Assembly: GCF_021028975.2 (NCBI RefSeq)
Contig: NC_059432.1
Location: 72,478,001 to 72,542,000 of the forward strand
Direction of reading: 5' to 3'
DNA: 64,000 nt
Source: Sphaerodactylus townsendi
Taxonomy: Eukaryota
The notes beneath the pieces were generated by a model. The model saw only the letters and a program-made list of their open reading frames with translations. It ran no database searches and had not been told where the DNA came from. The position numbers were made by a program, and so were the translations under genes. Below, piece by piece: positions 6,506-60,999 of the stretch (the stretch's first letter is position 1; each line of letters begins with the position of its first letter).

Positions 6506-6621
6506 GGCAGATTCCGCATAGGCCAAAAAGTGGTGTGAAAACGGTGTAATCCCTTTTTCCGCATTTTAAACCATTTTACACCGTTTTCACACTGCTGTTT
6601 TTGGCCCATGCAGAATTCGCC
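6506..6621. mobile_element. Harbinger-type MITE
   Basis: TIRs ggcagattccgcataggccaaaaa / tttttggcccatgcagaattcgcc, palindromic body, 3-bp flank aga on both sides. Confidence 0.7.
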
Positions 6622-17822: not shown

Positions 17823-18520
17823 CTAAAAAGAGGTGTTTTCAAAAAGAGAGAAAGATTTGGGATAGAAGTTGTCAAGCTAGGAGGTTGTAAAAGTTTAAAT
17901 TTACTCCCTACTATAAAACAGATAATTTCATAGTCTAATTAACTATTTTTTAATCTTCAAACTTTACATCTGCTCAGCTTCTAATCTAATTGAGCAAGGG
18001 AGTGGCCAGTATTAGCAAGTACCCCACAATAAAAGAATGAAAGCCAAGAGTCTTCAGGAACAAAGAAGATACAAAATATTTGAATATGCAAAGGACTCAG
18101 ATTGAGAAACAAATTTGCACATAACGACAGTGTAGTTATAAAATTGTTCAACGTTTTACCACTAGTGAAAACAGTCTAGTGTCTGCAGCTTATGTGTGTT
18201 GGCATATTCAATCTAACAGAAGCAAACACCTTTAAAAACACACTTTAACCACAAAATTTTCTGTGATACGTAATCTGGTAGGCTAATACTAAGATAATGA
18301 CTCAATTAATAGTACATCTATCTGAGCTTATCCAATTAATATAATTTTGTTATAATAATAGACTGGCTGAGAACCTGGACTTAATATCACAATCCCCAAA
18401 ACATAAAGCATTCGGGGCCACAACCAGAAGATGAACTCATAGTACCACATCCAGAGATTGTTTCCACACTATAGGGATAACCGTACAGTGTTTGGAAAGG
18501 GTAGCAGCCTTACTATGTCA

Positions 18521-18991
18521 TAGCAAAATGGAACAAATATCCAGTGACACCTTAAAGACCAGCAGCACCATTTATTTCATAAAGAGTTTCTGAGAGTTCA
18601 CTTCACCAAAGCTGATACCGAAACAAAAGTCACTCTTTAAAGGCCCTTTCCGCATGTGCAAAATAATGCACTTTCAATGCACTTTGCAGCTGGATTTTAA
18701 TGTGCAAAACAGCAAAATCCACTTACAAACAATTGTGAAAATGGACTTAAAGTTCATAATTCTGCATGTGCGGAAGGGGCCTTTAAGGAGCCGCAGGATG
18801 TTTGTTTCATGAGTGCTAGGGCTAGCTAAGGAAGAAATGCAGGTGGTTGTTTCATGTGAATCATTCCCTTGAGACTGTTTCTAATACCAGAATTCTTCCC
18901 CAGATTTGGTGAAGTGAACTTTCAGAACTTTGTAATGAAATAAGTGACGCTGGTCTTTAAGGTGTCACTGGATATTTGTTTTATTTTGCTA
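18521..18991. mobile_element. Inverted pair of Penelope-type 3' ends in FBXO45 intron 1
   Basis: Arms 18521-18614 and 18901-18991, including a 32-bp perfect inverted match (18532-18563 / 18949-18980) with the tctttaaggtg motif. Confidence 0.65.
18641..18782. mobile_element. MITE with GGCCCTTTCCGCA-type TIR
   Basis: TIR aggccctttccgcatgtgca / tgcatgtgcggaaggggcct, flanked by ttaa on both sides. Confidence 0.8.
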
Positions 18992-19079
18992 AGACACAGC
19001 AATGCAGTTACTCCTTTCCAATAAGTAACAGAACACAATCAGCGCCTTCCAGCCTCTCAATTGTTTTAGCCTTCTAGAT

Positions 19080-26596: not shown

Positions 26597-27043
26597 GGCC
26601 CTTTCTGCAGGGGCCATGCGAGCAGGGATGCACCAGCATAGTCTATGCCAGAGCACCCCCCAGGGCTGTTAGCATGAACGAACCCGCTGGCCCACCAGCC
26701 AGTGGCACATCCTCCGCACGGGCTGCAGTGCTCCGCTTCGAGTGGCTCCTGCCATTGCCTCCAATGTTGGGGGCCAGGAGGAGTGTCCCCTGGCCTCCAC
26801 AGAGCAACTGGAGCCGGCAGGAAGTAAAAAGGGACCAGGAGCGATGCGAAGAAAATGCCAGCTTCCACACAATGCTGTTCACTCAGCACCGGATGGAAGC
26901 TGGTGTTTTCAAAAAGACTCGCTCAATGAGTGAGTTGAGAAAATGCTGTTGTGGGGAGAAAACATCACCCTGTGTGATCTTCTCCCCACAACAGCGTTTT
27001 TACCAGCCCCATGCTGGTCTAAATGGCCCGTGTGAAATGGACC
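26597..27043. mobile_element. Harbinger-type non-autonomous element, multi-hairpin body (older copy)
   Basis: TIR ggccctttctgcaggggcca / tggcccgtgtgaaatggacc, 3-bp TSD tga, several internal stem-loops. Confidence 0.75.
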
Positions 27044-30695: not shown

Positions 30696-30845
30696 GGTAG
30701 AGACTAAACTGCAGTGCATTCAGGCCCAGTTTACTATGCTAGACACTAGCATGCAGAAATTATCAGAGAGTTCTGAATTGCAAAGCACCACCCTGAAGAA
30801 TCAAATGGAGGAAAATGAAATGTGGGCATCACTGGTAGAAGACAG
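30696..30845 (+). CDS. SMCO1: SMCO1 exon 2 (coiled coil)
   Basis: aacag|G acceptor, RVETKLQCIQAQF...EMWASLVEDR, donor AG|gtaag; 150 nt, phase 2/2. Confidence 0.88.
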
Positions 30846-30948
30846 GTAAGAAATATAAATTATGGCCTGAGTTACCTATGAATTTTTTAATAATTACATG
30901 TTATATCCCAAAGTTCCCTTGCAAAAGTAGAAAGCAAGTGTTGGGTCT

Positions 30949-31449
30949 GGCCGTTTCCGCACGGCCAGGAGGCGCCCCCACGCCGGCAGGAGTTCTGTCG
31001 GCGTGGGGGCGGGAGCCTGCTCGCACGAGCGAACCGACAGGCGACTGTCGCGTAAGACGCCTCTCGCTTTCCAGCTTCACTCCACCGGTGTCCTCGCTTA
31101 TTAAGCCTGCGGAAGTCGCCAGCCCGCCCAACGGCGCCCTCGACCCCTGGAGGTGGGAGGACAGTGTGGCGAGAATACCCGGCACGCAAGCATTAAGAAG
31201 GACACCGTGAGTGCGGGCGAGCGATGGAGACAGCGTCTTCGGCCCGGTCGCGGTTCGCACCGGCGCGAAGACGCCTTCCCAACAACAACAACCCTTTAAA
31301 GGGTTGTTGTTTAGGCGGCTGGACGCCGCCTCTGAGGGAAGAAGAGGAGTCGAACCGCGCTGCTGCGTTGCAGCAGCGGCCGCCTGTCTGCCTGGGGGCT
31401 TTTTTTTGGCGCCCCCAGGCCGTCATAAATGGGCCGTGCAGAAACGGCC
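30949..31449. mobile_element. Harbinger-type non-autonomous element, CpG-rich multi-hairpin body (young copy) in SMCO1 intron 2
   Basis: 18-bp TIR ggccgtttccgcacggcc / ggccgtgcagaaacggcc (1 mismatch), 3-bp TSD tct. Confidence 0.85.
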
Positions 31450-32250
31450 TCTGTGATATCCCTAGATTTCCCACTTGAGTGCCATCTCCCTCACACTGCA
31501 TCCCCTGTGACTCCTAAGGGTCCCCTGCTTCTTAGGAGCAGCTTCTCAGGTGGCTCAGAGAGCTTCAGAAGGAAGACAGGAAAGATCCGTATTGCAAGTG
31601 TAGCTCCACTCATGGTTCTCTGGATCCCACAATTCTCTTTGCTATAATGGTATCAAAGGAAATAGCTGGAAGTTGTAATTATAACTTTGTGTTAGCAAAA
31701 ATTAAATATAATCACTATATGAACGGTTGGTACTTCTCTGCAGCACACAAATATATTGTGATCCAAAGGACTTCTAACAGAGGCTAAAACTTAGGACTTC
31801 TCCGGAGCCAACACCACATAGCCCAGAAAAATCTACAATAGCCAGCTTCTAATAGAACTTTTTAAAGAAAGGTCTTAATTTGTGATGCTGGAACAATGGG
31901 GTCAGATAGTTCAACTAAAGATTTCTGAAGAAAATGTGGACAGGAAAACAGTCCTAATTTTAGGTTCCAACTTGGGAGGACATAAACATTGACCACTTTG
32001 AGTTTTTGTTCCATCTAGGAATTAATTCAAGTCTGAAGTAATCATATTGTAGTTCCCGCCCAGTTCTAATAATTATTTTTAGATTAAATCCCACTAACTG
32101 AATGGAACTTACACCTTAGAAAAGCATATTTAGGAATGTAAAGTATTCAGAACCAAAAGTCTCCCACCCATTATTTGAATGAGAATTAATCCCAGGCTTA
32201 TTGCAATTTAATTATTTTGAAATAAATCATATTTCCATCTCTTTTTGCAG

Positions 32251-32653
32251 ATACACTTCTGTTGAGGTAAACCTTTTCTACAGTTACATCTGTGAAACTA
32301 TTCATTATGTACATTCTCAAGTACTAGAAAAGCTACCGGATCTGAAAGGAGCCCTTCCTACTCTGTCGTCTATCCTGAGGAAAAAAGGCAAAAACCAAAG
32401 CATCAGGATAGCATGGGAGTCAGTACTGGAGAGACTTGGACTGCACGAAGGAAACGTTGAAGCACTCTGTGCCTTTTTCATTTTACATAGCTATGATGCT
32501 TGCTACTACCCAGTTAAACAAAGACAGAACTACTCCACTGACATCAGTTCTGTTATAACAAAAGTAGTGAAGAACCAGCTCTTTCGACACAGTCTGCTAA
32601 GTGCTGTCCGTCTGGTGGAGGATGGGAAAGCTTGGGGAGGTTTCCAAGACTAA
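32251..32653 (+). CDS. SMCO1: SMCO1 (C3orf43) exon 3
   Basis: ctttttgcag|A acceptor; YTSVEVNLFYSY...VLEKLPDLKGALPTLSSILRKK...WESVLE matches SMCO1; syntenic position between WDR53 and RNF168. Confidence 0.9.
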
Positions 32654-33579: not shown

Positions 33580-34250
33580 TTTAAGCCCCCCCCGCCCCGC
33601 CCGGGCCCTTCCCCACCACGATCAAACAGACAGAAGCAGGCTTATGCCTCCCTCCCCCGCAACAAACCTTGCAGGCAGGAAAACCCTACCAAGGCGAGGA
33701 ATCCCTTTCCAAGGCGCCTCGCTCCCCTCGCCCTCGCAAGGATGAGGGGGGCGCAGGACCTTCAAAACATATGAAGCCAAAAACTTATAACGCATATCTA
33801 TAATGATTTGGCAGCAGGTGGAAACTTCTATGAAGACAAACCTGCTTTTCATCGCACTGCAAAGAACGGCGGGACCAGGCAAGCGGAAGGGGCGAGGTTT
33901 GCCACTGCGCGGCTGCGAGATGGATGAGCCTCGTTCGCTGCCAAGGCCAGGAAGGGCGGGCACGACCCGGTTTCGCGCCATGAGGGAGGCGCGGCCTGTG
34001 TTTTGCGACAAGGAGTAGCCTCTGCGACCCGTGTGGCTCTTGGAGCAGTGAGAGGCGGCAGTGGAGGGGCTTCGCGGTAGGTTTCGTGCAGTTCGCCCCA
34101 TGGAGTAGCAGCCAGCGCCTCGTCCCTTTTCTCTGTGGCGACTCGAATCCAGCCTCGGGGTCCAGCCTCGGAAAGGAAGGTGCTGCAGCCTCGTTCCTTA
34201 TTCGGCCTTTTGCAAACGAGAGCTCGCGGCTTTCTTTGCTCGAGGTTTGG
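33580..34250 (+). promoter_or_regulatory. RNF168 CpG-island promoter and probable non-coding first exon
   Basis: CpG-rich; canonical E2F site TTTCGCGC at 33971; candidate donor GCG|gtaggt at 34077. Confidence 0.65.
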
Positions 34251-34488
34251 GTGTAGTGTGAAGTTTTAGGGGGAAAGCATTCTTCGCGTCCTTTTTCTTA
34301 CTATTTCATCCCGGAGCAGTTAAATAAAGCCGATTACCAGCTTTGTTTATCTACTCTGGGATGAAGTAGTGGGTGAATGAGAAACAGGACACGAAGAATG
34401 CTTCCCCCCTAAAACTTCACACTACACGTAAGCCTCGAGCAAAGCAAATAAAGATCTTATTGAACTACGGCCAAATGCGGAAATAGGG
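34196..34488. mobile_element. Palindromic MITE just downstream of the RNF168 promoter
   Basis: ~95-bp inverted arms 34234-34330 / 34340-34444; right end ggccaaatgcggaaataggg. Confidence 0.8.
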
Positions 34489-57082: not shown

Positions 57083-58260
57083 ATTTGATTTTTGATTTGA
57101 AATTTAATTTATATACCACCCTCCCCCGGAAGGCTCAGGGCGGTGTACAACATGATAAGTAACAACAATATCAATATAATAGGACCAAGCATAATGGTAA
57201 CATCGTTTACAATAACCCCTAACATAATCCAACATCAGCTTAATAAACATTAATAATAATATTCCTATCTCAGGTTAACCACTAACAATATAATCATCAT
57301 AGTACATAATAACAATTTGCAATAGCATAACAACATAATACATAGCATACAAGTAGTAGCAAAGCATCAAATATCACACACCTTAGTACCTGCAATAAAC
57401 ACCAATCCCTGTACATAACTTGTTAACCATTACAACTAAACAACCTCATAGATTAATTAACCTGATAACAAACATAAGATTAGAAAATAAAAATATATAG
57501 ATGGCGATTTCCTCCAGCATTGTAAACCAGGACCTAACTACAACTACAGTGGTACCTTGAAAATCGCAGATAATCCGTCTGGAGATTATCGGCGATTTCC
57601 GAAAACGGCATATTTTGAGGAACGCCGTTTGCACATGCGTAATGCCGTTAGTGCACACGCAATGCCATTAGTGCATGCACAATGCCGTTTGTGTATGTGC
57701 AACGCCGTTTGCGTACCCTCGTCGGCCGCCGAAAATAGAGGCGGCCGACGATTTTCGAGTGTGGAAATCGGCGCCTAGCAATTGTCGATTGCTGAAATGG
57801 ACGATTATCGAAGGCATCAATTTTCGAGGTACTACTGTATCTACTCTTTCAGAAACCAGTTTAGTGTGTACATTTTTGACCCAATGTATAGCAACCTAAT
57901 TCTCGTTTCACCCAAGCAGGTTGACTACTAAACTGCACTAAACTAAAATTCTTCAACATCCTGCAAAAATCCAGTGAAATCCCAAAATTTACCAACAACA
58001 ATCCCCAGACATTTAATCAACTTAATTTCTTTCTCGGGGGCAGAGTTCATGGAAAACCAATGCTGTCGCCCCTTCTCCCTCCAAATTCTCTAGCAGCCAC
58101 ACATGATGGAAAGGGCAGGGTTTTCAGAGAGGGCAAAAAGATCCAAATCCCTTTTGCCAACATCTTTTCCAGCACCTCCGTAGGCCTTGGGTTTAGTGGC
58201 AAAAAGCCTTGTGGCATTTCCTTGCTTTCTTTGAAGTATCTTTGAAGTTGAAATAAGGCC
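57083..58260 (-). mobile_element. LINE 3' region (L2-like) with low-complexity UTR, interrupted by a MITE
   Basis: Minus-strand end gtacaccgccctgagccttccggggg...taaat(tcaaa)n, typical of L2-type tails. The distal boundary is uncertain. Confidence 0.5.
57547..57837. mobile_element. Tc1/mariner (Tigger/pogo-like) MITE with internal 20-bp tandem array
   Basis: TIR cagtggtaccttgaaaat / attttcgaggtactactg, TA TSD on both sides. Confidence 0.85.
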
Positions 58261-60532: not shown

Positions 60533-60999
60533 AGATCTGCATGGTGTAGTGGTTAAGTGCTTGCACTGCCACTCACACAGTCAGGAATTCGAGCCCCCTG
60601 TGGGTCAGTTATCCTGGCAGCTGGCTCATGATCAACTCAGCCATCCATCCATTTCTTAGTCGGTAAATTAGTATCTAGCTCATAGGTAGGGGGTAAAAAT
60701 AGCCGGGGAAAGCAATGGCAAACTACCCTACAAAAGAGGCTAAGTGCTTGCACTGCCACTCACACAGTCAGGAATTCGAGCCCCCTGTGGGTCAGTTATC
60801 CTGGCAGCTGGCTCATGATCAACTCAGCCATCCATCCATTTCTTAGTCGGTAAATTAGTATCTAGCTCATAGTTAGAGGGTAAAAATAGCTGGGGAAAGC
60901 AATGGCAAACTACCCTACAAAAGAGGCTGGCCTATGAAATCACTGCTCACAGTGGTACCCCAGGGTTGGACACAACTGAAGGGGAAACTTTACCTTTAA
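60533..60999 (+). mobile_element. Sauria-type SINE with internal 187-bp tandem duplication
   Basis: tRNA head, actttaccttt tail, TSD gcttctttta (60523-60532, 61000-61009). Confidence 0.85.

Follow-up and report, generated by a model that had tools for sequence, protein, structure and literature searches.

Between two exons of a host gene lies a 501-bp element, here called copy A, whose inverted ends enclose a chain of separate local hairpins. A first-pass annotation of the letters had read it as a PIF/Harbinger insertion, young or unmethylated, and had proposed that its body may encode a structured RNA or a single-stranded DNA scaffold, raising the question of what an ordered series of hairpins does inside a cut-and-paste transposon. 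Having analysed the window (the whole 64-kb stretch of DNA around the element), we regard it as probable, on balance, that copy A is a NuwaII-type MITE moved in trans as double-stranded DNA, and that its hairpins are DNA palindromes made by template switching and not an RNA scaffold.

Identity and insertion history of copy A

The 18-bp TIRs, the TCT triplet on both sides and every hairpin named in the first-pass annotation were all found (Table 1). Copy A lies between two exons that match successive parts of the DUF4547 profile in register; we take the host gene to be SMCO1 and the intron holding copy A to be its second. Pfam gave no match in six overlapping frames of copy A (81-173 aa) nor in two frames of copy B, an older relative within the window.

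Table 1. Copy A, copy B and the host exons, in window positions.
Feature	Positions	Strand	Remarks
Copy B	26597-27043	+	447 bp; flanked by TGA triplets, site C|TGA|G; orientation as copy A
Upstream host exon	30700-30846	+	Pfam DUF4547 profile 2-44, E 8.9e-5 (does not reach the curated cut-off)
Left TSD, TCT	30946-30948		Empty-site joint omits 504 = 501 + 3
Copy A, non-autonomous element	30949-31449	none	501 bp, 65% GC, CpG o/e 1.04
Left TIR	30949-30966	+	Begins GG; 6-bp hairpin of its own around the TTCCGC core
Hairpin H1	30973-31011		17-bp stem: 16 Watson-Crick pairs and 1 G-T
H2 (hairpin 31019-31030), carrying the TCGCAC motif of the left subterminal region at offset 73; GAACC follows	31019-31035	+	
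Short hairpin	31035-31050		Letters and position verified
5' arm of long-range stem	31036-31043		Partner 31381-31388; whole-element fold
Central rod (closing stem; nested domain)	31086-31207		Weak structure, clearer on the minus strand
Hairpin H5	31233-31274		TTCGCA in the apex
Perfect 28-bp palindrome, no spacer	31284-31311		Greatest summed depth in 4/4 sequencing runs
Two short hairpins (31313-31331, 31358-31378)	31313-31378		Minus-strand B-box look-alike between them, 31346-31356
3' hairpin around T8	31390-31420		
Right TIR	31432-31449	-	TIRs 18 bp, 17/18 complementary
Right TSD, TCT	31450-31452		
Frame with downstream host exon	32183-32653	+	DUF4547 profile 48-176, E 1.2e-43

The NuwaII group of PHIS transposons is described as having a C|TNA|G target, GG ends, TIRs of 13-46 bp and DDE and Myb/SANT genes, and as including Xenopus families that are non-coding and 402-440 bp long (PMC4482050). 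Copy A has both the GG-starting 18-bp TIR and the 3-bp TSD; the C|TNA|G target is seen at the level of the family, in the loose ends of other copies and in copy B (C|TGA|G), and not at the site of copy A itself, G|TCT|G, which lies off the family consensus. Copy A is almost certainly a Harbinger-type MITE, and the earlier assignment to PIF/Harbinger, which has held, is sharpened to the NuwaII type by the empty site and the C|TWA|G target described below. PIF/Harbinger elements are reported to have died out in Anolis (PMC3014272). A literature search, with subscription journals, Repbase Reports and Dfam outside its scope, returned no paper that describes this family, and none on conserved folds or in-register hairpins in Harbinger MITEs. 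A Pol III SINE or retroelement was ruled out by the TIR ends, the 3-bp TSD and a B-box look-alike that varies among relatives.

Four of the 14 listed sequencing runs (X1, X2, X5 and X9) were compared with the window. One contig each in X1 and X9 joins 30945 directly to 31450, omitting 504 bases, which correspond to the element and one TSD. Contigs of X2 and X5 cross from flank into element at both ends and show no difference, one or other of these runs possibly being the source of the window itself. Copy A is thus polymorphic among close relatives and entered this site recently, duplicating 3 bp; its recent age follows from the left flank of the empty alleles (X1, X9), which carries only 0 and 3 substitutions in 246 bases. 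The first-pass annotation had argued from the intact CpGs for a copy that is young or unmethylated, and youth is borne out by the empty site in two of four runs and the near-identical flanks; recent insertion is, moreover, enough to account for the CpGs. Over the upstream host exon (30700-30873), a second contig of X5 differs at 26 of 174 bases, and is either a diverged copy of the exon or another animal's DNA.

The family is multi-copy, with 341-1755 contigs per run entering the comparison and 16-37 per run carrying its left end next to other flanks; being short, non-coding and dispersed in many copies, its members are MITEs. Depth, when summed, reaches 1e5 to 2.7e5 (X1, X2) at H1, at the 28-bp palindrome and at the 3' end, against about 25 in the flank, a figure that does not give a copy number. 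The left loose ends of other copies have the consensus ..TCTTA before the TIR, ending in CTTA in all four runs, and the right loose ends begin (T)TAG(A) after it, with a column agreement of 0.4-0.5 that is in keeping with mixed flanks; the family's target preference is C|TWA|G. Single contigs also hold related elements without 163, 177 or 422 of the interior bases (30967-31433), one of them reduced to TIR, H1 and TIR only. Positions 31040-31107 had no contig cover in any of the four runs, and this gap carries no weight, because it is found equally in runs that hold both junctions.

Several other repeats were seen in the window. Two short palindromic elements have GGC..TTCCGCA-related ends: one at 6506-6621 (z -10.6) has AGA on both sides, and the other at 18642-18781 (z -7.0), whose 3-bp flanks are unmatched, sits inside a larger inverted-repeat element at 18491-19021. 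A very stable 217-bp inverted repeat (34231-34447, z -22) lies on the margin of a CpG-rich region; 57545-57840 (window z -6.9) holds an element that is rich in CpG and has inverted ends, and a tandem duplication, 97% identical with a period of about 187 bases, spans 60548-60928.

Hairpins of copy A and their counterparts in copy B

Nine separate local perfect hairpins are present in copy A, a number reached by none of 200 shuffles; among 500-nt tiles of the window, which are AT-richer than copy A, 1 of 127 has ten. Two structural claims of the first-pass annotation survived in part. The letters of the hairpin at 31035-31050 are present, but in the whole-element fold it gives way to the long-range stem 31036-31043/31381-31388 (p 0.97 on the plus strand, 1.0 on the minus strand). 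Likewise, the long nested domain at 31086-31207 does have its closing stem, but it is the weakest-folding part of the element (z -2.3/-3.9).

Aligned with copy B, copy A gives z 5.9 with the TIRs and z 2.9 without them (3/500 shuffles), and the homology is modest and uneven. By segments, whose bounds were chosen by hand from the alignments, similarity is significant in H5 (5/500) and the right body (3/500) and marginal in the left body (32/500), and against 500 shuffles it is not significant in the rod (z 0.6), the linker or H6-H7. Within the 64-kb window, searches with profiles and covariance models turned up no other full copy.

Scored on sequence-only alignments, three hairpins nevertheless stand in register between the two copies, with 11 changes on both sides of a stem in total. 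For H1 and H2 together, 83% of cells are paired in copy B with 7 both-side changes (2/500 shuffles), against 33-45% in controls slid along the alignment; since the pairing structure was defined on copy A, this comparison favours the true register. H1 alone accounts for 6 of these changes, in an alignment that runs ungapped from the TIR, and the outer stem of H5 is paired in copy B at 9 of 9 positions with 4 both-side changes (35/500 shuffles). The best-conserved interior stretch at the left end runs from H2 to GAACC (15/19 identical). The stems of H1 are identical at only 13 of 34 positions, so that position, more than sequence, is what matches in H1, and the H1 hairpins of the two copies could be two hairpins that arose at one place.

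Other parts of the fold differ between copies. Eight of the ten pairs of the 3' hairpin are broken in copy B, where the same arms pair elsewhere, and in other copies this hairpin has a longer stem than in copy A; the long-range stem has no counterpart in the fold of copy B. A third form of H5, seen in loose ends, combines the same outer stem with another, near-perfect inner stem and a 4-base loop. RNAalifold on a MAFFT alignment of the two copies was set aside because its left end is misaligned, and the alignment of the rod was set aside likewise. The first-pass annotation had named covariation among copies as a test; with two full copies available, it was seen in H1, H2 and H5 and not in the 3' hairpin, and the rod could not be aligned.

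The constant length and place of H1, H2 and H5, at about 38% stem identity, are not explained by template switching alone. They fit the idea that the hairpins were selected as DNA structure, a cruciform or fold-back strand aiding synapsis of the ends or a gain in copies through gap repair, in which the fold would matter and the letters would not. The paired cells of H1 and H2, the intact H5 outer stem, the 11 both-side changes and the ungapped start at the TIR all speak for such a role, and a DNA fold requires no strand bias. It also has published company, in the reports that the interior of mPing affects mobility without a shared motif (PMC9921582) and in the fold-back model of MITE amplification (PMC5172404). 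Against it, the arms of the 3' hairpin swap partners between copies A and B, elements lacking 163-422 interior bases exist (single contigs, their mobility in that form left aside), the control MITEs described below are mostly plain mirror palindromes, and the structure scored was taken from copy A itself. We consider this reading rather unlikely. We would say the same of the broader proposal that NuwaII/Harbinger elements of vertebrates have a single-strand fold under selection, in DNA or in RNA, whose TCGCA-tipped hairpins are offered to the transposase or its Myb partner; if it were true, a transposon of the DDE cut-and-paste kind would depend on its internal secondary structure. A fold needed for mobility would also bear on why some MITEs out-amplify their autonomous partners, a question that the multi-copy subfamilies would make testable.

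Folding energy, strand and motif placement

The preferred reading, in which the hairpins are DNA palindromes made by template switching, has also to be set against the folding energies. As the first-pass annotation had expected, copy A is clearly more stable than dinucleotide-shuffled controls (z about -8.5 to -8.6 as RNA and -9.1 as DNA, with 0 of 100 shuffles equal in each case), and it stays so without its TIRs (z -7.0 as RNA, -9.2 as DNA); three CpG-island control windows nearby gave z from +2.7 to -0.8. Four other inverted-repeat elements of the window fold comparably or better (z -7.0, -10.6, -16.4 and -22.3), and folding energy was therefore dismissed as evidence for an RNA.

The whole minus strand is predicted to fold at -302.1 kcal/mol (z -13.8), against -283.7 kcal/mol (z -8.5) for the plus strand; this difference is the best hint of an RNA and weakens our preferred reading. 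The G-U pairs of the two whole-element folds, 14 on the minus and 5 on the plus strand, were set aside as strand evidence because the count is biased by each strand's own fold. In a strand-symmetric count beside Watson-Crick stems, G-T stood against A-C at 5 vs 3 in copy A (p 0.73) and 11 vs 7 in copy B (p 0.48). Asymmetry in G-U gain, computed against shuffles on parts of the element, was z -1.3 for the rod of copy A (19/200 shuffles), +1.7 for that of copy B and -1.5 for the right half of copy A.

Also on the minus strand, at 31346-31356, is an exact GGTTCGANNCC, a B-box look-alike that occurs in 22 of 3000 shuffles and was noticed after the fact. The few related contigs that span it (X1, X2) carry changes in it, none was seen in copy B, and its reading as a Pol III promoter was rejected as weak. 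In Rfam, no family came near its gathering score for either copy (best E 0.057 for A, 0.006 for B), so that the check proposed in the first-pass annotation produced no match.

The placement of a short motif would suit binding to duplex DNA. A TCGCA-type motif lies on the plus strand in the left TIR, in H2 (offset 73) and at the tip of H5, and on the minus strand in the right TIR. In copy B, the left motif is altered and lies at an offset of about 74 by alignment. The right subterminal motif, on the minus strand, lies about 68 from the end in a loose-end row (judged by eye) and 67 from it in copy B; the rows that carry it come from X1 and, in part, X9, and place a reverse TCGCAC just upstream of the 3' hairpin. 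Copy A is without it. The fixed distance to the ends, on opposite strands and within differing folds, is the pattern expected of binding sites on the duplex, and the Myb-like protein of Harbinger3_DR is reported to bind a 9-bp subterminal motif (PMC9710019). The claim that a (t/c)cgcac core recurs inside hairpins proved correct for H2 and H5, but the enrichment is weak, with two occurrences of TCGCAC in the body of copy A and 31 of 1000 shuffles equally high. The two ends of copy A are themselves alike: H1 and the 3' hairpin have 16 of 18 bases in common (2/1000 shuffles), and the right end matches the left-end model with an E of about 0.01. In copy B, an 8-base match between left and right is at chance level (167/1000).

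It is unlikely, in the light of these results, that the body encodes a structured RNA, which would most likely lie on the minus strand and serve transposition or escape from silencing. Such an RNA would make sense of the minus-strand z of -13.8, of the well-defined rod of G-U-containing helices on that strand and of the both-side changes between the copies, and the B-box look-alike would lie on its strand. It would, however, have to carry the motif three times in forward and twice in reverse orientation, its rod is not alignable between A and B and leans the opposite way in B, the G-T test is not significant, and the B-box look-alike has changed in other copies. The RNA or single-stranded DNA scaffold proposed at first pass is accordingly unsupported by these tests, which compared two full copies: no Rfam family and no significant G-T strand bias speak for it, the topology of the 3' hairpin is not kept, and the motif lies on both strands, symmetrically about the ends. 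Host-side filtering, whereby copies that fold compactly in either direction disturb splicing or transcription of the intron less and so persist, is very unlikely, for although both strands fold and copy A has a coding exon on either side, stands 102 bases past a donor site and holds two GTRAG words, it predicts no fixed place for single hairpins, and the exon/intron model comes from two Pfam-matched frames only.

Proposed template switching, control elements and known systems

A NuwaII-type MITE moved as duplex DNA would work as follows. A DDE transposase and its Myb/SANT partner, two proteins whose existence we infer, would cut and paste copy A in trans, reading the TIRs and the inward-facing TCGCA motifs on duplex DNA, with binding presumably some 68-74 bp from the ends. 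Selection would act to preserve these motifs and how far they lie from the ends, and the DNA between them would drift. A mutated arm could be recopied from its partner arm during replication or gap repair, by template switching, and such recopying would account for changes on both sides of a stem, for palindromes that lack a spacer and for stems whose partners differ between subfamilies. Stems are reported to become fixed through intrastrand template switching, with loop and structure retained (PMC8794818). Existing models trace MITEs to fold-back replication and to abortive gap repair, some MITE families being predicted to fold (PMC5172404), and internal sequence is reported to tune the mobility of mPing with no shared motif (PMC9921582).

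Control elements were taken from contigs with a generic TTA-TIR pair pattern, which required TTA and the TIR letters and left the flanking C and G free. It matched 0 viral elements, 75 metagenome elements and 1 genome locus; family-specific end patterns matched nothing in viral or metagenome contigs, and profile and covariance models of copies A and B found no match in the fetched loci. The 75 elements (L001-L075; 430-489 bases, 64 of them from one assembly) form families of 48, 17 and 2 members plus 8 singles, assigned to Harbinger by their ends only, with C before TTA in 35 of 75 and G after it in 41. Most are long mirror palindromes, and the two large families average 3.3 and 3.5 internal TIR-core copies per element. 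Among 14 elements profiled, L041 comes closest to copy A in its share of local pairs (63/108 vs 79/132). In a bacterial MAG contig, L076, a further TTA-flanked element (304-745) has ends resembling those of L062 by eye, and is probably animal DNA binned into the MAG.

In the largest control family, whose mirror arms lie 400 bp apart, 8 both-side changes were counted against a null mean of 1.5 (maximum 6 in 500), with G-T and A-C equal at 34 each; 45 of its 48 copies were used, L060, L067 and L069 having been left out for low alignment scores. RNAalifold under-paired the control families and was replaced by this direct comparison of arms. Both-side changes can therefore arise in MITE arms without strand bias, copy A being the hairpin-rich extreme. 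The support that these controls lend to template switching is weakened by the confinement of all 8 changes to four related copies and by their absence from the second family (0, null 0.8), and the account as a whole by the hairpin count of copy A, which exceeds that of all 75 controls. The role given to the motif is weakened in turn, because copy A lacks the right motif and was nevertheless recently inserted, at an off-consensus site, and because the motif is weakly enriched.

Copy A is, on this reading, an object of an ordinary kind, a young MITE that placed 500 bp of CpG-rich DNA in an intron, and its family, of NuwaII type, has been recently active in this lineage. The comparison also carries a caution, in that both-side stem changes in transposon copies need not signal RNA.

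Among described elements, the NuwaII families Harbinger-2N1A/B/C_XT and Harbinger_CPB (PMC4482050, Table S7) share with copy A the C|TNA|G target, the GG-starting TIR and the 3-bp duplication, and like it are vertebrate, non-coding members of 400-600 bp. The families listed there include no squamate, and the description drawn on here gives them no internal structure. In the zebrafish Harbinger3_DR, a two-protein system goes with a short subterminal motif (PMC9710019), recalling the motif that recurs near both ends here; in our family, however, the putative site is a 6-mer found in hairpin tips or arms, and the surrounding stems vary between subfamilies. The Tourist-like MITEs, mPing among them, resemble copy A in a length of about 400-500 bp, a TWA-type target and, as proposed here for copy A, mobilisation in trans, and some of their families are predicted to fold, with an interior that can tune mobility (PMC9921582, PMC5172404). 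Copy A differs from the mPing type in its string of local hairpins, rich in GC and CpG, whose stems stay in register across diverged relatives. The 75 TTA-flanked controls share its end logic and internal TIR-core copies, and most of them fold strongly, but they have 2-7 local hairpins against nine in copy A, and show no sequence or model match to A or B. The coral CMITEs offer a further parallel (PMC2872659), their interior being conserved between families for no known reason, as here; they differ in being piggyBac-related and in conserving sequence, whereas copies A and B have mainly kept position and pairing.
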